A stretch of 64,000 nucleotides of DNA from an uncultured Clostridia bacterium (GCA_947630015.1 CANRFY010000001.1:9894-73893), one strand, 5' to 3'; counted from the stretch's first letter, positions 18,221 to 59,849 are shown. Translations and numbers: made by a program. Notes: generated from the sequence alone by a model not told the origin.

Positions 18221-18295
18221 GGTGAGTGATGGGACTCGAACCCACGGCCTTCAGGGCCACAACCTGACGCTCTAACCAACTGAGCTACACCCACC
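18221..18295 (-). tRNA. tRNA-His (GTG)
   Basis: Hand-folded cloverleaf: extra G-1 paired with C73, TAGCTCAGTTGGTTAGAGC D-arm, anticodon loop TTGTGGC, GGTTCGAGTCC T-arm. Confidence 0.9.
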
Positions 18296-18301
18296 GTATA
18301 C

Positions 18302-18375
18302 CGTACCTGGAGGGACTCGAACCCGCGACCTACTGCTTAGAAGGCAGTTGCTCTATCCGGCTGAGCTACAGGTAC
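18302..18375 (-). tRNA. tRNA-Arg (TCT)
   Basis: Acceptor GTACCTG/CAGGTAC, anticodon stem ACTGC/GCAGT, loop CTTCTAA, T-loop TTCGAGT. Confidence 0.88.
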
Positions 18376-18378
18376 ATA

Positions 18379-18450
18379 AGCGGGTGATGGGAATCGAACC
18401 CACGTATCCAGCTTGGAAGGCTGGCGTACTAACCATTGTACTACACCCGC
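18379..18450 (-). tRNA. tRNA-Gly (TCC)
   Basis: Acceptor GCGGGTG/CACCCGC, anticodon stem CCAGC/GCTGG, loop CTTCCAA, T-loop TTCGATT. Confidence 0.9.
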
Positions 18451-32024: not shown

Positions 32025-33686
32025 TTACTTTGCCTTATAGCTGTCCTTGAGGCTGACGATGCGGTTATACGTGTTCGGCTTTTTCGTGTCGCGGATGAAG
32101 TAGCCGAGGCGGACGAACTGATAGTGTACGCCGTCCGCGTCCTCTGCGATCGACGGCTCTAATTTGCAGTTTTTGTACGTCACGGCGGAGTTGGGATTCA
32201 GATATTTGTCGTACTCGTCGGACGGGACGTCGTTCATGTTCGGCTCGGTGAAGAGCTTGTCATAGTAAATTACGTCTGCGTCGTGAGCGAATTTCGCCGA
32301 TACCCAGTGTATGGTTCCCTTGACTTTTCTGCCGTCTGCGGGCATTCCGCTGCCCGTCTCGATATCAGCCGTGCAGTGTATCGCCGAAACGTCGCCGTTT
32401 TCGTCCGTGTCGACGCCGACGTATTTGACGATGTACGCGCCCATCAGACGCACCTCGCCGTCCGGCTTGAGGCGGAAGAACTTGGGCGGCGGCACGAGCG
32501 CAAAGTCGTCGCGCTCAATGTAGACCTCGCGTGTGAACGGCACCTTGCGCACACCGGCATCGGGATCGGACGGATTGTTCGGCAGCTCAAAGTATTCGAC
32601 CGCGTCCTCGGGTATGTTGTCGATTATGACCTTTATCGGGTCGACGACGGCGACGCGTCTCGGCGACGACGCGCCGAGATCCTCGCGGACGCAATGCTCG
32701 AGCAGCTCCATCTCCGCCATCGAATCTGTTTTTGCTACGCCTACGCGTCCGAGGAAATCCTTTATCGACGCGGCCGTATAGCCGCGTCTGCGCATCCCGC
32801 AGAGTGTCGGCATACGCGGGTCGTCCCAGCCGTCGACGAGCTTATCCTCGACGAGGCGGCGCAGATACCGCTTCGACATGACCGTATACGTGAGGTTGAG
32901 GCGCGCGAACTCGATCTGGCGCGGCATCACCTTCATATCCATATGCGGCGCGACGTGGTCGCGTACCCAGTCGTAGAGCGGACGGTGTATTTCGTATTCG
33001 AGCGAGCAGAGCGAGTGCGTGATGCCCTCGATGCAGTCCTGTATCGGATGCGCGAGGTCGTACATCGGGAAGATGCACCATTTCGTCCCCTGCCTGTGAT
33101 GCTCGATGTAGCGGATGCGGTAAAGCACGGGATCGCGCATATTGAAGTTGCCGGACGCAAGATCGATCTTCGCGCGGAGCGTGTATTTTCCCTCGGGGAA
33201 CTCTCCCTCCTTCATGCGGCGGAACAGATCGAGGCTTTCCTCGATCGGTCTGTCTCGGTACGGCGAGATCGCCGGATGCGAAAGATCGCCTCGATATTCG
33301 CTGAACTGCTCGGGCGAAAGCTCGCACACGTATGCGTCGCCAGACTTTATAAGCTCGCACGCGAGGCGGTACGTCTCCTCAAAGTAGTCGGAGCCGTAGT
33401 AGAATCTGTCGTCCCAGTCAAAGCCGAGCCAGTGTATATCCTCTTTGATCGCGTCGACGTATTCTGTATCCTCCTTGGCGGGGTTTGTGTCGTCCATGCG
33501 GAGATTGCACCTGCCGCCGTACTTTTCGGCGGTGCCAAAGTCGATCATCAGCGCCTTGCAGTGACCGATGTGGAGATATCCGTTCGGTTCGGGAGGAAAA
33601 CGTGTGTGTATCTCGTCCGGACGGTATTTACCGGACGCTATCTCGCCGTCAATTATCTCGTGAATGAAGTTCGTGCTTTCAGCCAT
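32025..33686 (-). CDS. glnS: Glutamine--tRNA ligase
   Basis: RFPPEPNGYLHIGH (HIGH) and VMSKR (KMSKS) motifs, 553 aa. Confidence 0.92.
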   Translation of the reverse strand: MAESTNFIHEIIDGEIASGKYRPDEIHTRFPPEPNGYLHIGHCKALMIDFGTAEKYGGRCNLRMDDTNPAKEDTEYVDAIKEDIHWLGFDWDDRFYYGSDYFEETYRLACELIKSGDAYVCELSPEQFSEYRGDLSHPAISPYRDRPIEESLDLFRRMKEGEFPEGKYTLRAKIDLASGNFNMRDPVLYRIRYIEHHRQGTKWCIFPMYDLAHPIQDCIEGITHSLCSLEYEIHRPLYDWVRDHVAPHMDMKVMPRQIEFARLNLTYTVMSKRYLRRLVEDKLVDGWDDPRMPTLCGMRRRGYTAASIKDFLGRVGVAKTDSMAEMELLEHCVREDLGASSPRRVAVVDPIKVIIDNIPEDAVEYFELPNNPSDPDAGVRKVPFTREVYIERDDFALVPPPKFFRLKPDGEVRLMGAYIVKYVGVDTDENGDVSAIHCTADIETGSGMPADGRKVKGTIHWVSAKFAHDADVIYYDKLFTEPNMNDVPSDEYDKYLNPNSAVTYKNCKLEPSIAEDADGVHYQFVRLGYFIRDTKKPNTYNRIVSLKDSYKAK

Positions 33687-33704
33687 TGTATTTTTTCCTC
33701 CGAA

Positions 33705-35378
33705 TCAGAGTTTGTTTATCATGGCGCTCACGCGTGATAACGTGCGCTCCGCGCCGATTATGTGCATCACGGTATAGAGGTCGGGCGAGTTGAGTCTGCC
33801 CGTGACGGCGACGCGTATCATCATGCTGATGTCGGCGACGCTGCCGCGATATGCGTCCGCGTTCGATTTGTATTCCTTCATGTCGGCGCAGTAGCCGAGC
33901 GGCGCGCAAATCGCCTTTATCTTTTCAAACCATGCGCCCGCGTCGTCGCCGTCGTCGTATGTCTCGGCAAACATTTCAAGCGCCGATTTGATGTCGTGCA
34001 GATCGGTGTTTTCTGGGTAATCGTCCTCGACCTGGAACGTCTCGTCGTAAAACGGCTTCATGAAGCTTTGCAGCTCGACCCATGTGCCGTAGTCGCGGCG
34101 CGGCTTCTTGCCGCCGCGTCCGATACTGATTATCGACTTGGCGTAATCCTCGCCCATAGTGTCCACGACGGACGCGAAATCGGGCGCGTACTCCTTCGCC
34201 CACGCGTAAAACTGCTTGTACACATCATCCGCCGTCATGCGCGAGACGACATTTTTCGCGACGTCGTCGAGCTTATGCAGATCGAACAGGCACCCGGACG
34301 CGCTCATCTTCTTGACGTTGAACGGGAAATCCGTGTACGGTTTGTCGGGATTCTGCGCGCGCCATTCCTCGTAGTTTGAGTTGAGCAGCGTCATCACGTA
34401 CTCGGTCACGGCGAGCGGGCAGTAGCCGAGGCGGCTGTAATCGTCAAGGTTCGCGCCCATGTCGCGCTTCGACAGCTTTTTCTTCGAGCCGCCCTCGTCA
34501 AGCCGCATTATCTGCGAGATGTGGATATACTTCGGCGGCTTCCATCCCATGTAGGAGAAAAGCTGCAAATGCTTCGGCAGGCTCGGCAGCCATTCTTCGC
34601 CGCGTATGACGTGCGTCGTGCGCATCAAATGATCGTCGACGACGTGTGCGAAGTGATATGTCGGTATGCCGTCCGATTTTAAAAGCACGATGTCCTCGTC
34701 GTTCTCGGGCAGCTCGAGCGCGCCGCGCACAAGGTCGTTAACCTTGCGCTTGCGCGTGCCGTCGCCCTCCGCTATCGCGAACAGCGCGAATTTGTGACCC
34801 GCCGCAAGCTCTTGTTCAACCTGTTCTATCGTGAAATTGCGCCGCGCCAGCATCGCCTCGCGGCGAGCGCCGGCATCTGCTTCCCAGTCGACGCTTTTAA
34901 GCTCCGCCTTCTTGTCCGCTGTCTTTATTTCTTCGAGTTCCTCGTCAGTCGAGAAAACGGGGTAAGCCCTTCCCTCCTCGACAAGTCTCTTTGCGAATAC
35001 GTGATATATCTTGGCGCGCTTCGATTGCGTGTACGGACCGTATGCGCCGACCTCGCCTGTCTCGGTCACGCCCTCGTCAAATTTTATGCCGTAATGCGCG
35101 AGCGTTTTAACGAGCGCCTCTGCCGCGCCCTTGACCTCGCGGCGCGAGTCCGTGTCCTCGATACGCAGATAGCACACGCCTCCCGATTGATGCGCAAGGC
35201 GTTCGTCGACCGTCGTCGGAAACAGCCCGCCAAAATGCACGTATCCTGTCGGACTCGGCGCGAAACGCGTGACTGCTGCGCCCTCGGGCAGGCTGCGCGG
35301 CGGATATTTTGCCTCTATTTCGTCCGCCGACGGAAGCGGCTGCGGAAACAGGAGCGACGCGAGATATTTATAGTCCAT
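33705..35378 (-). CDS. gltX: Glutamate--tRNA ligase (long 557-aa form)
   Basis: RFAPSPTGYVHFGG, LRIEDTD and KLSKRD motifs. Confidence 0.85.
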   Translation of the reverse strand: MDYKYLASLLFPQPLPSADEIEAKYPPRSLPEGAAVTRFAPSPTGYVHFGGLFPTTVDERLAHQSGGVCYLRIEDTDSRREVKGAAEALVKTLAHYGIKFDEGVTETGEVGAYGPYTQSKRAKIYHVFAKRLVEEGRAYPVFSTDEELEEIKTADKKAELKSVDWEADAGARREAMLARRNFTIEQVEQELAAGHKFALFAIAEGDGTRKRKVNDLVRGALELPENDEDIVLLKSDGIPTYHFAHVVDDHLMRTTHVIRGEEWLPSLPKHLQLFSYMGWKPPKYIHISQIMRLDEGGSKKKLSKRDMGANLDDYSRLGYCPLAVTEYVMTLLNSNYEEWRAQNPDKPYTDFPFNVKKMSASGCLFDLHKLDDVAKNVVSRMTADDVYKQFYAWAKEYAPDFASVVDTMGEDYAKSIISIGRGGKKPRRDYGTWVELQSFMKPFYDETFQVEDDYPENTDLHDIKSALEMFAETYDDGDDAGAWFEKIKAICAPLGYCADMKEYKSNADAYRGSVADISMMIRVAVTGRLNSPDLYTVMHIIGAERTLSRVSAMINKL

Positions 35379-47852: not shown

Positions 47853-49295
47853 CTACGGCTCAAGATGCGAGCTTATGACGGCGCACATCGATTCTATCGC
47901 ATCCTGTCCGCGACCCTCCCCGACAGACTGATCTGCGTAATCGACTGTCTCAAGCACATCCGTTATCTCGCCGATCATATGATCCGACGTCCGCGAGCTG
48001 ATCACGGCGCTCGTCTGACGCGGCGTATCGGTCTTTTTGACCGTCAATCCCTGCGCGCGGTACGCCTCGCACATCGTCACATACGCATACTGTATCTGCT
48101 TTTTCATATTCGGCTGCGAATTGAGCGCCGACAAAAACTCGCGATAGCTTCGCGTCCGTTCGGCGCGCGTCTCGAATTCATGGATCGACGCCCGCTGCAA
48201 GCTGATCTCCTCGTCCTTGTAATTCGTGAATTCGTATTCCATCTCGCGCTGTCCGTAGTAAAACGAGAACAGATCCATTATATACATAAACAGCTCTCGG
48301 AACCATTCCTTTACGGCGGCGACGGCACGCCTCACATAATCTGTGCCGCGCAGGATCAAAAATACTATGCTGCCGATGAAAAGTATAACGAACAGAACGA
48401 TGAAAAACCGCTCGCCGATCGTCTGTCCTTCAAATACGAGGCGGCCAAGACTTCCCTCTCCGTCGTCCGAAACGTCGACGTCATACGAATCTCCGGCGCG
48501 TCGTCTCAAATATGCGCCGAGAATGACCGAGAATATGAGCCGCGCGAAGAACGATACGCCGAACAAAACGGACGCTGCGACGATCAACAGCACGATAACG
48601 CCGAGCATCATTACCGCGATCAGCCGGACGTTATACAGCCTTGCGCCGTTCGATATCGCCGACAGCGTGTCGGCGGCGCGCCGCTGTATGTGCGTCTGAT
48701 TCAAAACGATCACTGACGTTATTGTGAATACGGACAGATATATTATCATGCCGTCAGTGCCGAGTCCTATGACCGAGCAAAGCAGAAACGACAGCAAGAA
48801 CAGAGTAAAATACGTCAGCATCGTGCGCAGCGAAATGACGCGGTGCGCGGGATAGAACCATAAAACGACGCCGGAGGCGAGTGATACAAACACATATATC
48901 GCAAATAAAAACGGTATCACGGACTGATCGTTATATACCAATATCGCGCCGATTTTGAGAAGCATCCGCATAAGCGCAGGTCCCGAGAAAAACGCGCCAA
49001 CGGCGGCCGCCGCGCACAGCGTCAGCGGCAGCGCCGCTTTGATCGGTGCGAACGCCGATTTCGCGGATTCGTATCCGGTCTCAACGGAATAATCCTCTCT
49101 CGAATGCGCGCGAGGCTCCGTGACACGCCCGTATAGCGCCTGAAGTCCGTATCCAGCCGCCATCAATAAAAGCGTCGGAATCCAGGCGGCAAACGACGCC
49201 TTTTGAATGAATACGTACAAAATCTGCATCATAACGGCGCTGACGGCGACGCACGTTATCAGCTTATATATTTTATTGATCTGCTTATGCGTCAT
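47853..49295 (-). CDS. Polytopic membrane protein with a DUF4129-like C-terminus, third gene of the MoxR/DUF58 module
   Basis: Many TM helices. ATG at 49295 follows RBS GGGAGGAG. Context is MoxR-DUF58. Confidence 0.6.
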   Translation of the reverse strand: MTHKQINKIYKLITCVAVSAVMMQILYVFIQKASFAAWIPTLLLMAAGYGLQALYGRVTEPRAHSREDYSVETGYESAKSAFAPIKAALPLTLCAAAAVGAFFSGPALMRMLLKIGAILVYNDQSVIPFLFAIYVFVSLASGVVLWFYPAHRVISLRTMLTYFTLFLLSFLLCSVIGLGTDGMIIYLSVFTITSVIVLNQTHIQRRAADTLSAISNGARLYNVRLIAVMMLGVIVLLIVAASVLFGVSFFARLIFSVILGAYLRRRAGDSYDVDVSDDGEGSLGRLVFEGQTIGERFFIVLFVILFIGSIVFLILRGTDYVRRAVAAVKEWFRELFMYIMDLFSFYYGQREMEYEFTNYKDEEISLQRASIHEFETRAERTRSYREFLSALNSQPNMKKQIQYAYVTMCEAYRAQGLTVKKTDTPRQTSAVISSRTSDHMIGEITDVLETVDYADQSVGEGRGQDAIESMCAVISSHLEP

Positions 49296-49311
49296 CGTCC
49301 GCTCCTCCCGT

Positions 49312-50511
49312 TTATTCAAAATGCGTTTTGTAATATACCTCGACATTGGGCGGTATTATCTGCGCGTTGCGGTTTGTAGACGTTATATAGAACGTGACCT
49401 TTACGCCGTCGCGTTCCATCTCGTCGTGGAATATTATCATGCGTTCGCTTATATACGACGATACGACGACGAGATTTCCCGAATCGGCGAACGCCTCCTT
49501 ATGCTCAAGCACGAAATCGAGCATCCGCTCGATCGGACACGATATTTCAAGCTTCAGCGCCGCGAGCAGGCGAAGGGCGAGTATCATATCGCGCTTGCCC
49601 TCATACGCCGGCGTCATCATGATCTTGCTGCCTACGCCCGATTCGTCCGCGCGGAATTCATCCGACAGCGATTCCGGCGGAGTGTTTGCTATAATGCGCA
49701 CCGGCACATTCTCGCTCGATATTAAATCGAGAATTGACGCGACGACGGTGACGCAATGCTCGATATCGACGGGACTTTCGGGGCGCTGCGGATCGCGCTC
49801 TATATCGCGCGAATTCATGTTCAGCATTATATTGAATCTGTGGCGGCGCGTGTATTCCTCGCAGTTTACCATAAGCTTGCCGTGTACTGCCGTCTGCTTC
49901 CAGTTGATCTTATTCATCGGATCAAACGACGTGTAATCGCGCGCGCCCGCGATCCGCAAGGGATCGGTAAGCAGACTCGATTCGGCGCGCACGTCGCCAA
50001 GCTGATAATGCGACGCCGTAAATCGTCCGTCAAGCTCGACCGGCTTCGGCAGCACGACGACAGTGTTTGCCTTCTTAGGCTCGCATTCGTATCCCTTCGA
50101 TATCGGATTCATGCCGAACATATCGTTGGACACGATCACGGCTCCGCCGATCGAATATATGCCGCGCGTCATGCAGTTGACGCGCCATCGCCTGCGTATC
50201 TTTTCGCGGCTCTTAAGCACGAATACGCTCTGGACGTGCGAGCGGAGCGAGTCGCGCGGCGTCCCATGCTCGTATGTCGTTATGCGGAAACGAAGTCCGT
50301 CCGGCAGCGTCGTGTCGACCTTCGCATACGGGACCGGCATCGTCTTCCCGTTCGTGATCTCTTCATAAATGAAGATGTCCTCGCCCTCGAACGTCTCCTC
50401 GGCGCTGACTTTAACGTCATAATCTATATCGTCAAACGAATGCTTTCCGAATGCGCGCGACTGTATAAGATATACGGCGATTATCGCTATGAACAGCGCA
50501 AGAAAATACAT
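49312..50511 (-). CDS. DUF58 (vWA-related) protein
   Basis: N-terminal TM, RDYTSFDPMNKINWKQTAVHGKLMV motif, classic position after MoxR. Confidence 0.75.
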   Translation of the reverse strand: MYFLALFIAIIAVYLIQSRAFGKHSFDDIDYDVKVSAEETFEGEDIFIYEEITNGKTMPVPYAKVDTTLPDGLRFRITTYEHGTPRDSLRSHVQSVFVLKSREKIRRRWRVNCMTRGIYSIGGAVIVSNDMFGMNPISKGYECEPKKANTVVVLPKPVELDGRFTASHYQLGDVRAESSLLTDPLRIAGARDYTSFDPMNKINWKQTAVHGKLMVNCEEYTRRHRFNIMLNMNSRDIERDPQRPESPVDIEHCVTVVASILDLISSENVPVRIIANTPPESLSDEFRADESGVGSKIMMTPAYEGKRDMILALRLLAALKLEISCPIERMLDFVLEHKEAFADSGNLVVVSSYISERMIIFHDEMERDGVKVTFYITSTNRNAQIIPPNVEVYYKTHFE

Positions 50512-50515
50512 ACTC

Positions 50516-51463
50516 TTATGCCACAGGCACCGGAACGGCGTCGATAATATATTCGATTATGTTGGCGTTTGACTCCGACAGGCGGATCGTTCCCTGCGAA
50601 CGCGATATTATCCTGTGCGCGAGTACAGGCACGGCGACGTCCTTTACATCGTCGGGAAGCACATGATCGCGCCCGTCGATCGCGGCCCATGCCTGCGCCG
50701 CTCTCATCAGTGAAAGCGTGCCGCGCGGGCTGACGCCGAGACGCACGCGCTCAGACGCGCGCGTCATCGATACAATATCGACGATATAGCGCTTTATAAG
50801 CTCGCTCACATGGACGCGTCTGACCGCATCTTGCGCCGCGACAATGTCGCCGCGCGTGCATACGGCGCCGATCGAATCGAGCGGCGACGATTCCATATAT
50901 TCGTCGAGAACGGCAATTTCGGCGTTCTTTTCGGGATATCCGAGCGCTAATTTCATGAGAAATCTGTCCGTCTGTGCCTCCGGCAGCGGAAACGTCCCCT
51001 GCGATTCGATCGGATTCTGCGTCGCGATCACGAAAAACGGAGGTTCGAGCTTATATGTGACACCGTCGATCGTAGCCTGCGATTCGCCCATGCATTCGAG
51101 CAGCGCGGACTGCGTTCGCGGCGTCGTTCTGTTGATCTCGTCGGCGAGCAGTATATTTGTAAACACGGGACCGCGGCGGAAGATGAATTCGTTCTCCTTC
51201 TGCGAATAGAAGTTGATGCCCGTTATATCGGACGGCAAAAGATCGGGCGTGAACTGCACGCGCTTGAATTCGGCGTCTATCGATTTGGCAAGCGCCTTTG
51301 ACAGCGTCGTTTTGCCCGTGCCGGGGATATCGTCGAGCAGAACATGACCCGACGACAAAAGCGCCGCCGTTATATATTTTATCTCTTTGCGCTTGCCGAA
51401 TATGACTTTTTCGACGTTGTCGATCACATTTTTCGACATCAATGCAACATCTCTTGTCTCCAT
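50516..51463 (-). CDS. MoxR-family AAA+ ATPase
   Basis: DIPGTGKTT Walker A, LLADEINR Walker B, 315 aa. Confidence 0.9.
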   Translation of the reverse strand: METRDVALMSKNVIDNVEKVIFGKRKEIKYITAALLSSGHVLLDDIPGTGKTTLSKALAKSIDAEFKRVQFTPDLLPSDITGINFYSQKENEFIFRRGPVFTNILLADEINRTTPRTQSALLECMGESQATIDGVTYKLEPPFFVIATQNPIESQGTFPLPEAQTDRFLMKLALGYPEKNAEIAVLDEYMESSPLDSIGAVCTRGDIVAAQDAVRRVHVSELIKRYIVDIVSMTRASERVRLGVSPRGTLSLMRAAQAWAAIDGRDHVLPDDVKDVAVPVLAHRIISRSQGTIRLSESNANIIEYIIDAVPVPVA

Positions 51464-51569: not shown

Positions 51570-51980
51570 ATATTAAACAGAAGTTACTACCTAAATTTTC
51601 TCGTCGTCCGTAGGACGACTTTGACATTTACAGCGTTTATTAAAACAGAAATTTCTTCCCATTCTTTCGTCGTCAGTATGACGACATTGACATAAGTGTT
51701 TTTATTAAAACAGAAATTTCTACCTTAATTTTCTCGTCGTCCGAAGGACGACATATAACTATTGAAATTTATGTTTCAATAAACGCTTCCTTATACTGTC
51801 GTCGCCGCTCTGCGGCGACATTGACATTCACAGCGTTTATTAAAACAGAAATTTCTACATTATTTTCTCGTCGTCCGTAGGACGACATTAAATCAATGAA
51901 ATTTATGTTTCAATAAAAACTACCTTAATCTGTCGTCGCCACGCAAGTGGCGACTTTGACATTATTGTTTTTATTATACC
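51570..51980. repeat. Tandem array of six GC-stem hairpins within nested 65-nt and 134-nt AT-rich direct repeats
   Basis: Hairpins lie at 51603-19, 51669-85, 51736-52, 51801-19, 51870-86 and 51935-54. TTATTAAAACAGAAATTTCT occurs at 51637, 51702 and 51837, with a degenerate copy at 51571. TGAAATTTATGTTTCAATAAA occurs at 51763 and 51897. Confidence 0.9.
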
Positions 51981-52190: not shown

Positions 52191-52211
52191 CAAATATGAA
52201 TTTCTATTCGC

Positions 52212-52240
52212 TTGACTTTTACAAATCGCGCAACTATAAT
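52212..52240 (+). promoter_or_regulatory. Near-consensus sigma-A promoter of the ABC operon
   Basis: TTGACT-N17-TATAAT, 34 nt upstream of the ATG at 52274. Confidence 0.75.
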
Positions 52241-52273: not shown

Positions 52274-54604
52274 ATGACCGAGCTGTTTGATATACCCGCC
52301 GGCGTTAAATCGGCGTTTGAGACGCGCGGCGTCCCATACGATAATGTTGTAATCGCCGCTGCGACGGATCAGTCGCGAGACTGCGTGCCGTCCGACAACT
52401 ACATATTTTTGACGGATACTGATCTTATCGTCATGGCAGGCTCCATGACGGGCGTATCCGATTCGAGATCGATCGCGCGCCGCGCGCGCACTCCGCGCAC
52501 GTTCGAGGTTCTGTCATATGACAGCTGGGAGCTGTCGCGCATCGATTCGTTCGCCGTGGAGGAGATGATCTCATCCGCGCGCATCGTTGCGCGCATGAAG
52601 CCCGACGCTGACTCGCTGCCCTATACGGTACTTGTCGCGAATCTTTCAAATACGTACAAGAGCGAAGCATATAAATTCGTGCGCCTCTCCAACGTCGCGC
52701 TCGCAGGAGACGATCCCGCGTCGCATCCAGATGCGCATATTTATGAGGACGACGACAAAAAGGAAGAGCTGTTCTGCCCCAAATGCGGCAGGCGTTACGC
52801 CGATCCGGAACGCAAAATATGCCCGCACTGCATGGATAAGGTCCACATCCTCAAGCGTTTCTCGGGATTCTTCCTCAGATATAAGGTCCATCTGTTGATG
52901 ATATTCCTGACGCTTGTCCTGACGAGCGGACTCGGCGTTCTTTCGCCGTACATCTCGAGCGGATTTTACTACGACGAGGTCCTCTCCGAGGACGGAAAAT
53001 TCGCGGGACAAATTCTGCTCGTGATCGGCATCATCTTCGCGACAAGGCTCATCTCGATGTTCGTCACGATGCTGAACAACTATATAACGTCCGTCATCGC
53101 CGCGAAGGTCACATACGACTTGAAAAAGGAAATATTCCATTCGATCGAACGACTCTCGATCAGCTATTTTACGAACAGGCAGACGGGCGGTCTTATGACG
53201 CAGGTCAACCGCGACGCGAACAATATTTACCGCTTCTTCTGCGATACTGTCCCGTATTTTCTCGTCAATATATTCCAGGTCATCGGCGTATTCATCATAA
53301 TGATGATGTTCAACTGGAAGCTGACGCTGATTTCGTTTATCACGGTGCCGCTCATGGCACTCTGCATGAAAAAACTGTTCGAGAAAATGGACAAGATGCA
53401 CGCGAAACGATTCTCGACGGCGCGCTCGATGAGTTCGCTTTTGTCGGACGTTCTGACCGGCATCCGCGTCGTTAAGGCGTTTTCCAAGGAGGACGAGGAA
53501 AGCGAGCGCTTCGAGGGACGGAGCAGACGCGTCGCCGAGGCAGATAAAAAGGCGTCAATCTACAACACGACCGCCTTCCCTATCGTCAATTTTCTGCTCT
53601 ATATCGGAAATATCATCGTCTGGGGCGTCGGCGGCTGGATGGTAATGACGAGTCCCGACGGCTCGTTCAAATACGGTATGCTCGCGACGTTCGTGGCGTA
53701 CATGAATATGATATACAGCCCGATGGGATTCTTCATCGACGTCGTCTATACGATGACGGACAGCCTTAATTCGATGAACCGCCTGTCCGAGATCATGGAT
53801 GCGATCCCCGACGTCGTCGAAAGCGATCATCCCGTATCGATCGGCGAGGCTAAAGGCCACGTCGAGTTCCGAAACGTCGAATTCTCGTATGAAAAGAACC
53901 GCAAGATCATCGACGGCGTCTCGTTCGACATCGAACCTGGGAAGATAATCGGCATCGTCGGGCATACCGGCGCGGGCAAATCGACGCTCGCGAATCTTCT
54001 CATCCGCCTCTACGATACGATCGCGGGCGAGATTTTGATCGACGGCGTCAACGTGCGCGATATCCCGTTTGCCGAGCTGCGCCGCAATATCGCGATCGTC
54101 TCGCAGGAGACGTATCTGTTCATGGGTACGATCAAGGAAAACATCTGCTACGCAAAGCCAGACGCGACCGATCTTGAGATATTAACTGCGGCCAAACTGG
54201 CGGGCGCTCACGATTTCATCGTAAAGCTGCCGGACGGCTACGATACGATGATAGGCTTCGGCTATAAGGATCTGTCGGGCGGCGAGCGCCAGCGCATATC
54301 GATCGCGCGCGCGATACTGCTGAATCCGCGCATCCTCATCATGGACGAGGCCACGGCCGCCATGGATACGCAGACCGAGCGCCAGATACAGACCGCGCTC
54401 GAGCAGCTCATAAAAGGGCGCACAACGATAATGATCGCGCACCGTCTGTCGACTCTTCGCGACGCGGATCATCTGATCGTCATCGAAAACGGCAAAATGC
54501 CCGAGTTCGGGACGCATACGGAGCTTTTGAAGAAAAAAGGCATTTACTACGGCTTATATAAGATGCAGCTTGAAGCGCTGCGCAACATCGGCATCGAAGG
54601 ATAA
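52274..54604 (+). CDS. ABC exporter (TMD-NBD half transporter) with a roughly 190-aa N-terminal cytoplasmic domain ending in a zinc ribbon
   Basis: GHTGAGKST, LSGGERQR, ILIMDEAT. CPKCGRRYADPERKICPHC at aa 168-186. ATG at 52274 follows RBS GGAGGA. Confidence 0.88.
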   Translation: MTELFDIPAGVKSAFETRGVPYDNVVIAAATDQSRDCVPSDNYIFLTDTDLIVMAGSMTGVSDSRSIARRARTPRTFEVLSYDSWELSRIDSFAVEEMISSARIVARMKPDADSLPYTVLVANLSNTYKSEAYKFVRLSNVALAGDDPASHPDAHIYEDDDKKEELFCPKCGRRYADPERKICPHCMDKVHILKRFSGFFLRYKVHLLMIFLTLVLTSGLGVLSPYISSGFYYDEVLSEDGKFAGQILLVIGIIFATRLISMFVTMLNNYITSVIAAKVTYDLKKEIFHSIERLSISYFTNRQTGGLMTQVNRDANNIYRFFCDTVPYFLVNIFQVIGVFIIMMMFNWKLTLISFITVPLMALCMKKLFEKMDKMHAKRFSTARSMSSLLSDVLTGIRVVKAFSKEDEESERFEGRSRRVAEADKKASIYNTTAFPIVNFLLYIGNIIVWGVGGWMVMTSPDGSFKYGMLATFVAYMNMIYSPMGFFIDVVYTMTDSLNSMNRLSEIMDAIPDVVESDHPVSIGEAKGHVEFRNVEFSYEKNRKIIDGVSFDIEPGKIIGIVGHTGAGKSTLANLLIRLYDTIAGEILIDGVNVRDIPFAELRRNIAIVSQETYLFMGTIKENICYAKPDATDLEILTAAKLAGAHDFIVKLPDGYDTMIGFGYKDLSGGERQRISIARAILLNPRILIMDEATAAMDTQTERQIQTALEQLIKGRTTIMIAHRLSTLRDADHLIVIENGKMPEFGTHTELLKKKGIYYGLYKMQLEALRNIGIEG

Positions 54605-54621
54605 AGGAGGATCACGTTATT

Positions 54622-55182
54622 ATGTCTGAACTGAAAAAGACGGCGCTTTCCGACGTCGTTTCAATAACGTATATAACGAGAGACAACGCCGAGTTCCGGC
54701 GCGAGGGCGATTTTCTGTCGCTCCGCGTGACGCTCCCCGTCGGGGTGGGGCCTGACGGCGAGCCGACAGGCGGCGAAAAATATTACGAGCGCATTTATCT
54801 GCACCGTTCGTTCCCGTATGAGCATCCATACGAGTATATATCTGTGCTTGACCGCGACAGCGCCGAGATCGGCATCATATCGGATATAAACGATTTCCCC
54901 GAAAATATCGCCGATATGCTGAAATCGGAGCTTGATCGGAAATATTACGCGCCCGTGATCGATAAGATTTTGTCCGTAAAGGAGAGATACGGATATTCGT
55001 ATTGGGAGGTGATCTCCGACGGGCGAAAGCTGTCGTTCAATATGCGCGACACGTTCCGCAATATTTTAAAGGTCACGCCCGAACACGTATTTCTCAACGA
55101 CAGCGATTCAAACAGATACGAAATCAAGGATACGGAAAAGCTCGACAGAAAGAGCTATAAGCGGATCGAGCTTTATCTCTGA
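54622..55182 (+). CDS. Small soluble protein between the two ABC genes (DUF1854-like)
   Basis: 186 aa, RBS AAAGGAGGA, no TM. The family name is recalled from the conserved ABC-X-ABC context and is not verified. Confidence 0.55.
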   Translation: MSELKKTALSDVVSITYITRDNAEFRREGDFLSLRVTLPVGVGPDGEPTGGEKYYERIYLHRSFPYEHPYEYISVLDRDSAEIGIISDINDFPENIADMLKSELDRKYYAPVIDKILSVKERYGYSYWEVISDGRKLSFNMRDTFRNILKVTPEHVFLNDSDSNRYEIKDTEKLDRKSYKRIELYL

Positions 55183-55220
55183 CCGCGCGCCGCGCATTCT
55201 AACGAAAGGATTATTCGCAA

Positions 55221-57437
55221 ATGGGTGAAAGACTCGCGCTCACTTCCCGTCTGTGCCGCATAAACAGCGACGTTTGCGCCGACGACGTTATCGTCGCCTT
55301 CGCATACGATCTGCCGCGCGAGGGTTACGGCACCGTCGACGGCTTCGTCGCGGTCACGACGGATCGCGTCTATGTATACGAGGACGACCGTCTGCTCGCC
55401 GATTACAACGCCGCGGATGTGACGGAATACATATTCACAAACGGCGTCGGATGCGTATTTGCCGAATGCGTTGCGGACGGCGTTCACGTCATGCTGTGCC
55501 GCGCGTCGATGTCGCATAAGGATACGATATCGTCGATAATATGGCAGCTTTCGCGCCGCCTCGAGCGCGGCACGTACAGCTACGCGTATGAGGAGGACAC
55601 GGACGTCAAATGCCCCACCTGCGGCCGCAGGTATCCGCCGGGATCGCACGTATGCCCGCACTGCACGGCAAAGAAGGGCTATTTCAAACGGATCTGGGAG
55701 ATCGCAAAGCCGTATAAAATGTTCATATTCTGCTCGGTGCTGCTCTATATCGTTTCCGCCGCGTTGCAGCTGCTGCCCGCATATCTGAACAAGATAATGA
55801 TCGACGACTACATCAAAGCCGAGGGTGCGCTCGAGCTGTCGAAATCGGCCGATTTCATAATCGGATTCGTCGGCGTCGTGCTGTCGCTGCTCGGAGTAAA
55901 CATCATAACGCGCGCCGTCGGTATGCTGCGCGGCGTCACGCTTATCGAGGCAGGCACGCGGATGATGGTATCGCTCCGATCGTTGGTGTTCGGCAAGATT
56001 CAGCAGTTGTCCGTTGCAAAGATATCGAAGCGCACGGCGGGCGAGCTTATGAACCGCGTGACAGACGATACAAACCAGCTTCAAAACTTCATCATGAACG
56101 ATATCGGCGGATTCTTCGAACAGATTCTGATCTTCTTCGCCGTATCGATCATCATAATCCGCTATGACTGGCGGCTCGCCGCGCTCATACTGATTCCGGT
56201 GCCGCTCGTCCTCGTCGCAAACAGGCTGTTCCATCAGTATATGCACCGCATATTCCACCGTCAGTGGGTGATGAATTCGCGCGCGAATACGATACTGCAC
56301 GACATTTTCAGCGGTATCCGCGTCGTCAAGGCGTTCGGTATGGAGCGCCGCGAGATGGAGCGCTACGACAAGGCGACGCTCGACGAATGCAACGCCCAGA
56401 TCAAGGCCGAGACGTTCTTCGCCAAATTCTCGCCTCCGATGAGCTTTCTGATGGGGCTTGGCGAATTCTTCCTTCTGTTCTATGTCGGGACAAAGATATT
56501 GAACAAGGAAATGACGCTCGGCGATATGCAGCTGTTCACGACGTATGTTTCGATCATATACGGGCCATTGCGCTGGCTGTCTAATTTCCCGCGCCGATAT
56601 GAGCGCACGATGACGAGCGTCGTCAAGATATTCGATATCATCGACGAGGACGTCGACGTCGCCGATAAGGACAACGCGCGCGAGCTTGACATTGTAGGCA
56701 AGATCGAATTCGAGGACGTTTCGTTCGGCTACGACAGCGGCAGCAACGTGCTGCACAACATCAATCTTACAGTCGAACCCGGCGATTTCGTCGGCATCGT
56801 CGGACGCTCCGGCGTCGGCAAATCGACGCTCATAAACCTTGTGATGCGCCTCTACGACGTCGACGACGGCACGATCAAGATCGACGGCGTCGATATCCGC
56901 GATATTTCACAGTCTTCCCTGCGCTCGCAGATAGGCGTCGTGCTTCAGGAGACGTTCCTGTTCTCCGGCACCGTATACGAGAACATCGCATACGCAAAGC
57001 CGTCGGCGACGCGCGACGAGGTACTCGCCGCCGCGAAACTGGCGGGCGCGCATTCGTTCATAATGAAAATGCCCGACGCATACAACACGCGAGTCGGCGA
57101 ACGCGGACATACGCTTTCGGGCGGCGAACGCCAGCGCATAGCGATAGCGCGCGCGCTGCTGCACGATCCGCGGATCCTGATACTCGACGAGGCGACGGCG
57201 TCGCTCGACACCGAGACCGAAAAGCAGATACAGGACGCGCTTCAGATTTTGTCCCGCAACAGAACGACGCTCGCCATCGCGCACCGTCTGTCGACGCTGC
57301 GCAATGCGACGAAGCTCATAGTCCTCGACAAAGGCACCGTCGCCGAGGTCGGCACTCACGACGAGCTGATGCGCCGCCGCGGAATTTATTACGGACTCGT
57401 CATGGCGCAGCGCCAGATGTCAAAAATGAGCCGGTGA
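55221..57437 (+). CDS. ABC exporter (TMD-NBD half transporter) with a roughly 150-aa N-terminal cytoplasmic domain ending in a zinc ribbon
   Basis: GRSGVGKST, LSGGERQR, ILILDEAT. CPTCGRRYPPGSHVCPHC at aa 131-148. Confidence 0.88.
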   Translation: MGERLALTSRLCRINSDVCADDVIVAFAYDLPREGYGTVDGFVAVTTDRVYVYEDDRLLADYNAADVTEYIFTNGVGCVFAECVADGVHVMLCRASMSHKDTISSIIWQLSRRLERGTYSYAYEEDTDVKCPTCGRRYPPGSHVCPHCTAKKGYFKRIWEIAKPYKMFIFCSVLLYIVSAALQLLPAYLNKIMIDDYIKAEGALELSKSADFIIGFVGVVLSLLGVNIITRAVGMLRGVTLIEAGTRMMVSLRSLVFGKIQQLSVAKISKRTAGELMNRVTDDTNQLQNFIMNDIGGFFEQILIFFAVSIIIIRYDWRLAALILIPVPLVLVANRLFHQYMHRIFHRQWVMNSRANTILHDIFSGIRVVKAFGMERREMERYDKATLDECNAQIKAETFFAKFSPPMSFLMGLGEFFLLFYVGTKILNKEMTLGDMQLFTTYVSIIYGPLRWLSNFPRRYERTMTSVVKIFDIIDEDVDVADKDNARELDIVGKIEFEDVSFGYDSGSNVLHNINLTVEPGDFVGIVGRSGVGKSTLINLVMRLYDVDDGTIKIDGVDIRDISQSSLRSQIGVVLQETFLFSGTVYENIAYAKPSATRDEVLAAAKLAGAHSFIMKMPDAYNTRVGERGHTLSGGERQRIAIARALLHDPRILILDEATASLDTETEKQIQDALQILSRNRTTLAIAHRLSTLRNATKLIVLDKGTVAEVGTHDELMRRRGIYYGLVMAQRQMSKMSR

Positions 57438-57459: not shown

Positions 57460-57501
57460 GCGCGGGATGAGCCGATTTGCGGCTCATCCCGCGCCGTTTT
57501 T
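57460..57501 (+). terminator. Intrinsic terminator of the ABC operon
   Basis: 14-bp stem GCGCGGGATGAGCC/GGCTCATCCCGCGC with a 7-nt loop, then CGTTTTTTG. Confidence 0.85.
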
Positions 57502-57564
57502 GTCCATATGCGCGCGAATTTGCGGGCGCGCGTCTAAAAAGTTGCCCCATAATCGTCCGAAACC

Positions 57565-58838: not shown

Positions 58839-59849
58839 ATGGCTGTGGAAACTGAAGCAAAGAAAAAAGTCGCCCTCTCGGGCATTCAGCCGAGCGGCAA
58901 TTTGACGATCGGCAATTATCTCGGCGCGCTGTCCAATTTCGGGCCGTTCACCGACGAATTCGACTGCTACTACTGCGTCGCGAATCTCCATTCGATTACG
59001 GTGCGTCAGGTGCCGGCCGAATTGCGCCGCCGCACATATGAGGTGCTTGCGCTCTATATCGCGTGCGGACTCGATCCCGAAAAATGCACGCTGTTCGTCC
59101 AGAGCCACGTTCACGAACACGCGGAGCTTTCATGGATGCTGTCGTGCTTCACCATGTTCGGTGAGCTGTCGCGGATGACGCAGTTCAAGGACAAAAGCGC
59201 GAAGCACGCCGACAATATCAACGCGGGACTGTTCACGTATCCCGTGCTGATGGCGGCCGATATCCTTCTCTATCAGACCGACGTCGTACCGATCGGTCAG
59301 GATCAGAAGCAGCATCTTGAACTGGCGCGCAATATCGCCGAACGCTTCAACGGCGTATTTTCGCCTACGTTCACGGTGCCGGAGCCGTATATACCGAAGG
59401 TCGGCGCGAATATAATGTCGCTGGCGGAGCCGACGAAAAAGATGAGCAAATCAGACCCGAACGAGAACGCTGTCGTGCGCATACTCGATCCGCGAGACGT
59501 AATAATCAAAAAATTCAAGCGCGCTGTGACAGATTCCGACTCCTGCATCAGCTATAATAACGGCAGCGACGGCGTGCGCAACCTTATGACGATATATTCC
59601 TGCTTCACTCACAAGAGCTACGACGAGATCGAACGCGAATTCGACGGACGCGGCTACGGCGAATTCAAGGCCGCGGTCGGCGAGGCGTGCGCCGACGGAC
59701 TCTCCGGCGTTCAGGCTCGGTTTGCCGAGCTTATGGCGGACAAGGCGTATCTCGAATCCGTGATGAAGAACGGCGCTGTTAAAGCGTCGCATACGGCGTC
59801 AAAGACGATATCGAAGGTTGCGCGCAAGCTCGGATTCGTACAAACCTAA
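58839..59849 (+). CDS. trpS: Tryptophan--tRNA ligase
   Basis: SGIQPSGNLTIGNYLGA and KMSKS motifs, 336 aa. Confidence 0.92.
   Translation: MAVETEAKKKVALSGIQPSGNLTIGNYLGALSNFGPFTDEFDCYYCVANLHSITVRQVPAELRRRTYEVLALYIACGLDPEKCTLFVQSHVHEHAELSWMLSCFTMFGELSRMTQFKDKSAKHADNINAGLFTYPVLMAADILLYQTDVVPIGQDQKQHLELARNIAERFNGVFSPTFTVPEPYIPKVGANIMSLAEPTKKMSKSDPNENAVVRILDPRDVIIKKFKRAVTDSDSCISYNNGSDGVRNLMTIYSCFTHKSYDEIEREFDGRGYGEFKAAVGEACADGLSGVQARFAELMADKAYLESVMKNGAVKASHTASKTISKVARKLGFVQT

Follow-up and report, generated by a model that had tools for sequence, protein, structure and literature searches.

We analyzed a 64,000-nucleotide (nt) stretch of DNA from an uncultured Clostridia bacterium of the rabbit gut (GCA_947630015.1 CANRFY010000001.1:9894-73893), hereafter the window, which holds a three-gene operon in which a soluble protein of the DUF1854 family is encoded between two paralogous ATP-binding cassette (ABC) half-transporters, ABC1 and ABC2. 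Each half-transporter opens with a cytoplasmic N-terminal domain (N-domain) that ends in a predicted zinc ribbon shortly before the first transmembrane (TM) helix. The best composite explanation, and one that we consider somewhat probable, is a heterodimeric ABCB-type exporter in which the N-domains, with their pleckstrin homology (PH)-like fold and ribbon, form a cargo-recognition or gating module together with DUF1854. Its parts call for different degrees of confidence: the architecture and the three-part partnership are very probable, a role of the PH-like domains and DUF1854 in recognizing cargo or in gating is a tentative proposal, and a peptide or polymer as the class of cargo, suggested by analogous systems, is a rather unlikely guess. 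The features of the operon, in window coordinates, are:

52212..52240, + strand: sigma-70-like promoter, TTGACT-17-TATAAT, matching 11/12 consensus positions, 34 nt 5′ of the ABC1 start codon
52274..54604, + strand: ABC1 half-transporter, with N-domain, predicted zinc ribbon, 6-TM domain and nucleotide-binding domain (NBD), preceded by a GGAGG site
52274..52774, + strand: cytoplasmic N-domain of ABC1, homologous to the ABC2 PH-like domain, with insertions
52775..52831, + strand: predicted zinc ribbon of ABC1, CPKC-N11-CPHC (CPKCGRRYADPERKICPHC), from motif conservation and weak Pfam zinc-ribbon matches
52892..53725, + strand: transmembrane domain (TMD) of ABC1, PF00664 (Pfam, E=3.4e-43)
53912..54358, + strand: NBD of ABC1, PF00005 (Pfam), with GHTGAGKS, LSGGERQR, ILIMDEATA and IAHRLS
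54622..55182, + strand: DUF1854 protein, PF08909, 186 amino acids (aa), soluble and acidic (Pfam, E=1.3e-33)
55221..57437, + strand: ABC2 half-transporter, with PH-like domain, predicted zinc ribbon, 6-TM domain and NBD
55221..55571, + strand: domain of ABC2 modelled as PH-like (AlphaFold2 model and Foldseek)
55611..55664, + strand: predicted zinc ribbon of ABC2, CPTC-N10-CPHC (CPTCGRRYPPGSHVCPHC), from motif conservation
55725..56570, + strand: TMD of ABC2, PF00664 (Pfam, E=7e-46)
56751..57200, + strand: NBD of ABC2, PF00005 (Pfam), with GRSGVGKS, LSGGERQR, ILILDEATA and IAHRLS
57460..57504, + strand: strong intrinsic terminator, formed by a hairpin at 57460-57494 (12 of the 15 stem pairs being GC) and a T-run

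An earlier reading of the window from its sequence alone (the sequence-only reading) had placed an ABC-soluble protein-ABC operon here, with its own promoter and terminator, and all of these elements are present. Three co-oriented open reading frames (ORFs) on the + strand (52196/52274-54604, 54622-55182, and 55221-57437) encode, in order, ABC1 (776 aa), the DUF1854 protein (186 aa), and ABC2 (738 aa), and from the ORF coordinates the genes are spaced by 17 nt (ABC1/DUF1854) and 38 nt (DUF1854/ABC2), as had been claimed. The mechanical ORF call for ABC1 opens at 52196 and is longer than the annotated ORF, which starts at 52274; as the promoter-like site falls within the longer call, 52274 is the better start, and its ATG is preceded by a GGAGG ribosome-binding site. 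Purine-rich sites also precede the start codons of DUF1854 and ABC2. Sequencing runs that might show co-transcription were looked for as well, but those retrieved were DNA-type gut metagenomes, with no RNA run among them. Upstream of the operon, a search of Rfam returned no credible riboswitch or leader RNA, and no regulatory element is evident in the promoter region.

Both ABC1 and ABC2 contain the ABC_membrane and ABC_tran domains of Pfam (PF00664, E<=1e-43; PF00005, E<=1e-32), which in ABC1 span residues 207-484 and 547-695, respectively; in ABC2 the ABC_membrane match opens at residue 169. Hydrophobic segments are confined to the TMD, and the first of them does not occur before residue 198 in ABC1 or residue 167 in ABC2, in agreement with the long soluble extensions that had been described ahead of TM1. 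Since neither the N-extensions nor DUF1854 contain a hydrophobic segment, we place them in the cytoplasm. From the ribbon to the C-terminus the two half-transporters are 37% identical. The Walker A motif, the LSGGQ-type signature, the Walker B motif with its glutamate, and the H-loop are intact in both window proteins as well as in 72 ABC1 and 70 ABC2 orthologs, and neither protein has a degenerate ATP site, both sites being consensus. In domain order and NBD motifs each is a type I (ABCB-like) exporter half-transporter, and the two genes are adjacent, co-oriented, paralogous, and kept as a pair, as those of heterodimeric exporters are. The closest solved cores are those of ABCB1, ABCB4, Sav1866, TM287/288, TmrAB, and MsbA (PDB chain matches with E=1e-90 to 1e-106). 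ABC1 and ABC2 share their core, in which an NBD follows a 6-TM ABC_membrane domain, with the heterodimeric TM287/288 and TmrAB and with the homodimeric Sav1866 and MsbA, and they resemble the two heterodimers also in that both half-transporter genes lie next to each other. They differ from the solved exporters in having two consensus ATP sites and in the region ahead of the core, where the PDB matches start no earlier than query residue 139, around or past the ribbon.

The possibility, raised at the outset, that the N-extensions are unrelated low-complexity sequence did not hold up: they are folded, homologous, and conserved domains, as judged from hhalign and from a confident model of the ABC2 extension. 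The profiles of the two N-domains align with a probability of 99.7% (hhalign, E=2.7e-25) over residues 18-198 of ABC1, and the alignment takes in the beta-rich part and the ribbon; the inserts of the ABC1 N-domain differ in length between orthologs. The AlphaFold2 model was made for ABC2 only, from 23 orthologs, and covers residues 1-160 with a predicted local distance difference test (pLDDT) score of 88.8, reaching 93-97 over residues 11-120. It consists of a helix, seven strands (residues 23-96), and a long C-terminal helix (97-116), followed by the ribbon. Among the Foldseek matches listed against the PDB, PH-superfold domains predominate (probability 0.92-1.00), including the TFIIH p62 PH domain, talin F3, the GRK2 PH domain, kindlin, the Sin1 PH domain, CARMIL, and Rtt106. 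The ABC2 N-domain therefore models confidently as a PH-like beta-sandwich, the ABC1 N-domain would be PH-like by homology to it, and both the model and the structural matches agree with the early guess of a bacterial PH-like fold. The Pfam PH family has no match in the N-domains and no Pfam family spans them, and a reductase or other enzyme domain was detected neither in them nor in DUF1854 (Pfam, NCBIfam). PDB chain searches with the ABC1 N-domain sequence and the ABC2 N-domain profile yielded nothing significant, and a word-index homolog search with the ABC1 N-domain gave only four matches and was uninformative.

For the ribbons, the same CxxC-N11-CxxC spacing had been proposed in both transporters; the positions and sequences were exact and the first spacer is indeed of 11 residues, but the second is of 10. 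The motif is found in 71/76 upstream ABC ORFs and in 70/71 ABC2 orthologs. Of the five upstream ORFs that miss it, three lack their N-terminal end (435-589 aa) and two (L048 and L070) do carry the motif, farther along than the span that was scanned; the single exception among the ABC2 orthologs is L071. In both transporters the ribbon lies about 20 residues ahead of TM1 and is directly followed by a basic amphipathic stretch, probably an elbow helix, that leads into TM1. Zinc binding is a prediction from the motif: the Pfam zinc-ribbon matches stay below the gathering score, and the ribbon is modelled with a pLDDT of 60-79.

Some N-domains depart from this pattern or add to it. The ABC2 ortholog of L071 (10522-12705, in an Acutalibacteraceae metagenome-assembled genome, MAG) lacks the zinc ribbon and keeps the PH-like domain. 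At L048 (4554-7391) and L070 (7143-9941) a much longer insert, in which Glu, Lys, Ala, and Pro abound, interrupts the ABC1 N-domain. It moves the ribbon from about residue 168 of the ORF to 327-340, although overlong ORF starts may account for part of this shift. The PH-like domain of ABC2 also contains two conserved cysteines (55452-55499) with no counterpart in ABC1, C78 in 54/70 and C93 in 63/70 orthologs, which the model places on neighbouring predicted strands (78-85 and 88-96) and which are a possible redox or metal site.

The middle protein had been assigned to the DUF1854 family, and Pfam agrees: it scores 116.1 bits against a gathering cut-off of 26.8 for PF08909 and covers profile positions 1-128 of 130. 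Its AlphaFold2 model (pLDDT 87) shows two beta-strand stretches, each followed by a helix. The protein has no TM segment and is uniformly acidic, with a median isoelectric point of 5.1 over 81 orthologs. Searches of the PDB chains with its sequence and profile gave nothing significant. We considered whether DUF1854 could be a free copy of the N-domain and rejected it, as hhalign of each N-domain against DUF1854 shows no relationship. In some Oscillospiraceae members (P0056, P0084) the protein is lengthened by an E/K-rich insert, some 40-50 residues long.

When one genome per species was scanned, close DUF1854 relatives turned up at 389 places, and our comparisons use 80 listed loci, nearly all of them from uncultured gut Clostridia. 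Wherever the contig permits, the order ABC-DUF1854-ABC on one strand is kept in all of them (80/80); the upstream gene is always the best match to ABC1 and the downstream gene always the best match to ABC2, and the median gaps across orthologous loci are 17.5 and 29 nt. The same order recurs in many metagenome contigs and in one of Paenibacillaceae type, found through a protein cluster to which the cultured Insulibacter thermoxylanivorax (Paenibacillaceae) also belongs; the ABC protein of this species shares a 90%-identity cluster with P0378. This survey of neighbourhoods upholds the conserved ABC-X-ABC arrangement that had been described for the family. Gene families found at 20 or more of the 80 Clostridia loci are limited to MoxR/DUF58-type genes, one unannotated protein, and a GH106-like gene. 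The other flanks are made up of varied housekeeping genes, for example those for SecA, MetH, the DNA polymerase III alpha subunit, UvrA, and ParAB, and from this variation of the neighbours we conclude that the three-gene cassette is autonomous.

Beyond the close relatives, 1.84 billion representative proteins were searched exhaustively with a profile (E<=1e-3), and only 386 clusters contained the N-domain. Among the matches listed, it lies near the N-terminus except in three proteins with several matched stretches, which we discarded as unrelated multi-ribbon proteins. All the full-length matches (24/24) have the size of an ABC protein (712-930 aa), resemble ABC1/ABC2 in sequence, and contain the 4-Cys motif, and the three scanned with Pfam each contain ABC_membrane and ABC_tran. 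When the genomic context of five full-length N-domain ABCs was inspected, every one was adjacent to DUF1854 or fused with it: three belong to ABC-DUF-ABC loci (one from the Insulibacter cluster and two on metagenome/MAG contigs), one is followed by DUF1854, and one is a fusion. The fusion, P0379, is a 930-aa protein with the order N-domain-ribbon-TMD-NBD-DUF1854, confirmed with Pfam, that stands alone; L132 (1016 aa), with BLAST matches to ABC proteins and to DUF1854, is probably another. Distant DUF1854 sequences were also used to scan metagenomes, which yielded 33 loci where both flanks could be seen. ABC-DUF-ABC was found in 14 of them, ABC-DUF in 10, DUF1854 with a downstream ABC only in two, a fused ABC/DUF1854 in one, and DUF1854 without an adjacent ABC in six; in this sample the 4-Cys motif is present in 52/52 full-length ABCs adjoining DUF1854. 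The sequence comparisons thus support DUF1854 as a dedicated partner of the N-domain ABC type, and the dedicated soluble partner of the sequence-only reading has its counterpart in the natural fusions and in the five inspected contexts.

For all three proteins the top NCBIfam matches are NF052233 and NF052234, the 'cyanophycin metabolism-associated' ABC transporter and DUF1854 protein, and NF052233 is likewise the top match of ten distant N-domain ABCs, all of which score below its cut-off. The ABC2 N-domain by itself matches the N-terminal part of NF052233 (E=1.2e-4), two distant relatives have N-domains that match it too (E=3.4e-10 and 4.3e-4), and these matches of isolated N-domains suggest that the whole DUF1854-linked superfamily may share the N-terminal module. 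In two beta-proteobacteria, Acidovorax and Cupriavidus, DUF1854 and its ABC are cofit with cphA/cphA′, and on this basis DUF1854 has been proposed to be a subunit of an amino-acid polymer exporter (bioRxiv 10.1101/072470). The belief that DUF1854 had been assigned neither function nor substrate therefore has to be given up, both for this proposal and for the NCBIfam naming of the sister family. Like our operon, the NF052233/NF052234 systems comprise an ABCB-type exporter, an N-extension that aligns to the ABC2 N-domain, and a DUF1854 partner encoded alongside. They differ in that the paper describes one ABC gene, whereas here two paralogous ones surround DUF1854, in the absence of cphA/cphA′ among the scanned ORFs near the present operon, and in that the present DUF1854 aligns to NF052234 from its residue 54 (model position 20), with about 35 extra N-terminal residues.

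In the mechanism that we propose, ABC1 and ABC2 would most likely form, judging from their sequences, a heterodimer with two catalytically competent ATP sites, of which DUF1854 would be the third, soluble subunit. Each ribbon would join a PH-like beta-sandwich to the elbow helix and TM1, setting the two PH-like modules at the membrane-cytoplasm interface. The fusion of DUF1854 to the C-terminal end of the NBD in some relatives argues that it acts physically at the transporter's cytoplasmic face, and on this ground we would have it dock there, close to the NBDs. DUF1854 and the PH-like domains would then couple the ATPase cycle to the binding of a hydrophilic cargo made in the cytoplasm. If the cphA-linked sister family, the exporters that bear C39 or C39-like domains, and the PH-domain proteins required to export a leaderless bacteriocin are taken as analogues, the likeliest candidate for this cargo would be a peptide or an amino-acid-polymer-like molecule bound for the envelope or the medium. 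That ABC1 pairs with ABC2, where DUF1854 docks, which way the cargo moves, what the modules do, and what the cargo is are all inferred.

Peptidase-containing ABC transporters (PCATs) bear an N-terminal C39 peptidase and HlyB bears a C39-like domain. These systems are alike in concept, with a cytoplasmic cargo-handling domain just before TM1 of an ABCB-type exporter, and the NCBIfam matches between the cores are strong. However, the matches to the C39/HlyB-type families open only at residue 156 or later, past the N-domain, and Pfam finds no C39 peptidase or C39-like domain in ABC1 or ABC2; the modelled module here is a PH-like sandwich with a zinc ribbon and not a papain-like C39 fold, and neither a precursor peptide gene nor a type I secretion partner is seen in the annotated flanks. 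A second analogy is provided by the PH-domain proteins DdE and DdF, which are needed for the ABC-dependent export of the leaderless bacteriocin enterocin DD14, and thus by PH-type domains that work with an ABC transporter to export a cytoplasmically made peptide (PMC8657885). DdE and DdF, in contrast, are separate proteins of a bacteriocin cluster, the likeness considered here is one of domain type, and no bacteriocin genes are evident at the present operon.

Several observations weigh against the explanation that we favor. The best-studied bacterial heterodimeric exporters have one degenerate ATP site, and the two consensus sites predicted here leave room for two homodimers. The PH-like assignment comes with modest Foldseek E-values (3.5e-3 to 2.8e-2), and the DUF1854 model could be assigned to no fold when compared with the PDB (Foldseek, best E=0.059, template modeling score at most 0.26). 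For equivalog assignment NF052233 demands 880 bits and NF052234 150, and the operon proteins fall well short of both, the ABC proteins scoring 526 and 555 bits and the DUF1854 protein 71. No recurrent biosynthetic or precursor gene lies beside the operon in the annotated or scanned flanks, and no cphA-like ORF occurs among the large window ORFs scanned with Pfam (the unscanned ones being of at most 428 aa), so that the argument about cargo draws on the distant sister family only. Finally, DUF1854 is found without an adjacent ABC exporter in one high-GC lineage, represented by the six loci of the metagenome sample (GC 0.54-0.69, five of them at 0.60 or more).

The first alternative is that ABC1 and ABC2 are two independent homodimeric exporters that share DUF1854 as an accessory or regulator. 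Both NBDs are fully canonical, and the operons with a single ABC and DUF1854 (10/33 loci) and the fused single-gene forms show that a homodimeric version exists. We nevertheless consider it unlikely for the present operon, where the pairing is strict, the order fixed, and the spacing tight, with the two transporters falling into distinct orthology groups in 80/80 loci; moreover, their N-domains have diverged, that of ABC1 having inserts and lacking the conserved Cys78/Cys93 of ABC2. A similarly small chance must be given to an importer with an exporter fold, in which the N-domains and DUF1854 would receive or process the cargo, or to a multidrug pump with a regulatory module. In IrtAB, a cytoplasmic siderophore-interaction domain handles imported cargo. 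The closest solved cores are moreover multidrug and lipid ABCB exporters, the public annotations of the orthologs read 'multidrug' or generic ABC transporter, and the upstream region shows no riboswitch or other regulatory element. On the other hand, the N-domains and DUF1854 are devoid of any detected enzyme domain, a dedicated cargo is suggested by how elaborate and strictly conserved the accessory modules are and by their restriction to one ABC clade, and the genetics of relatives point to a link with a polymer synthetase.

A true cyanophycin link, in which the operon would encode a Firmicute cphA-associated exporter of cyanophycin or a cyanophycin-like Asp/Arg polymer with cphA elsewhere in the genome, seems to us improbable. 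It would account for NF052233 and NF052234 being the top matches, for the match of the isolated ABC2 N-domain to NF052233, and for the cofitness with cphA/cphA′ in beta-proteobacteria (bioRxiv 10.1101/072470). Yet the scores lie under the cut-offs for the operon proteins and for the ten distant N-domain ABCs alike, and no cphA-type domain was found at related loci, among the ORFs annotated or scanned there, any more than in those scanned in the window, the recurrent neighbours being only the MoxR/DUF58, unannotated, and GH106-like genes. In a plasmid collection searched for a proteobacterial cphA-linked example, the DUF1854 query found no match, and the matches to ABC2 covered only the cores of generic ABC exporters, the inspected one, from Rhizobium, being an ordinary ABC pair. 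A role in anti-phage defence was discarded, as PADLOC shows merely generic NBD similarity.

Around the operon, a divergent run on the - strand (47853-51463) encodes a MoxR-type AAA ATPase (AAA_3), then proteins of 399 and 497 aa without a Pfam match. This run adjoins the ABC operon in about 30-35 of 81 loci, in closer relatives only and sometimes with a GH106-like gene in between; we rejected the MoxR/DUF58 genes as functional partners, since the synteny is limited to the closer clade and absent at more distant loci. Between this run and the operon promoter, at 51575-51980, lies an intergenic array of about six repeat units of 66-67 nt, some of them inverted, each made up of a short GC hairpin (CGTCGTCC-GNAG-GGACGACG), TTGACATT, and TTTATTAAAACAGAAATTTCT. 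The array does not resemble clustered regularly interspaced short palindromic repeats (CRISPR), has no credible Rfam match, and is found nowhere else in the window, and a 17-nt core of its repeat has no exact match among the 87 loci compared. Long antisense ORFs inside the ABC genes range from 80 to 916 aa between loci and were dismissed as shadow ORFs. Elsewhere in the window there are two neighbouring class I Glx-tRNA synthetase genes (32025-35378, - strand), one with GlnRS-type C-terminal domains and one GluRS-like, a TrpRS gene (58839-59849), and three clustered tRNA genes (18221-18450). In the high-GC lineage, the two metagenome loci inspected closely (L118, 9902-11202, and L123, 9896-11208) have no ABC exporter next to DUF1854, and a ComF-like gene that overlaps DUF1854 by 4 nt comes after it; the ComF-like gene of L123 scores for a double zinc ribbon and a phosphoribosyltransferase, and at both loci two Opp/Dpp-type ABC ATPase genes, Pfam-confirmed in L123, lie upstream of DUF1854.

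ABC exporters with dedicated cytoplasmic cargo-handling domains, such as the PCATs and HlyB, are few and mechanistically informative. The association of DUF1854 with ABC transporters has already been recorded in the Pfam notes (quoted in bioRxiv 10.1101/072470), in fitness data, and in NCBIfam. In a limited literature search we found no description of the PH-like and zinc-ribbon N-domain as the hallmark of a clade, of its strict coupling to DUF1854, or of the heterodimeric ABC-DUF-ABC form, which is dominant in Bacillota. It is conceivable, if doubtful at present, that the PH-like domain, the ribbon, and DUF1854 define an undescribed class of ABC exporters, with heterodimeric, homodimeric, and fused forms, in which they would serve as a cargo-loading or gating device for an endogenous and chromosomally unlinked cargo; such exporters would have a housekeeping role in gut Oscillospirales-type Clostridia and some Bacilli, and would be concerned neither with drug efflux nor with the handling of cyanophycin.

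Throughout the clade an ABCB core is combined with a PH-like domain, with a predicted zinc ribbon close to the membrane, and with a DUF1854 subunit that is either soluble or fused, and its sole functional clue so far is the fitness data from beta-proteobacteria. The cultured relative Insulibacter thermoxylanivorax makes the system experimentally approachable. Once defined, the cargo would give DUF1854 a function, and it might show how cytoplasmic polymers or peptides leave the cell without a leader peptide.

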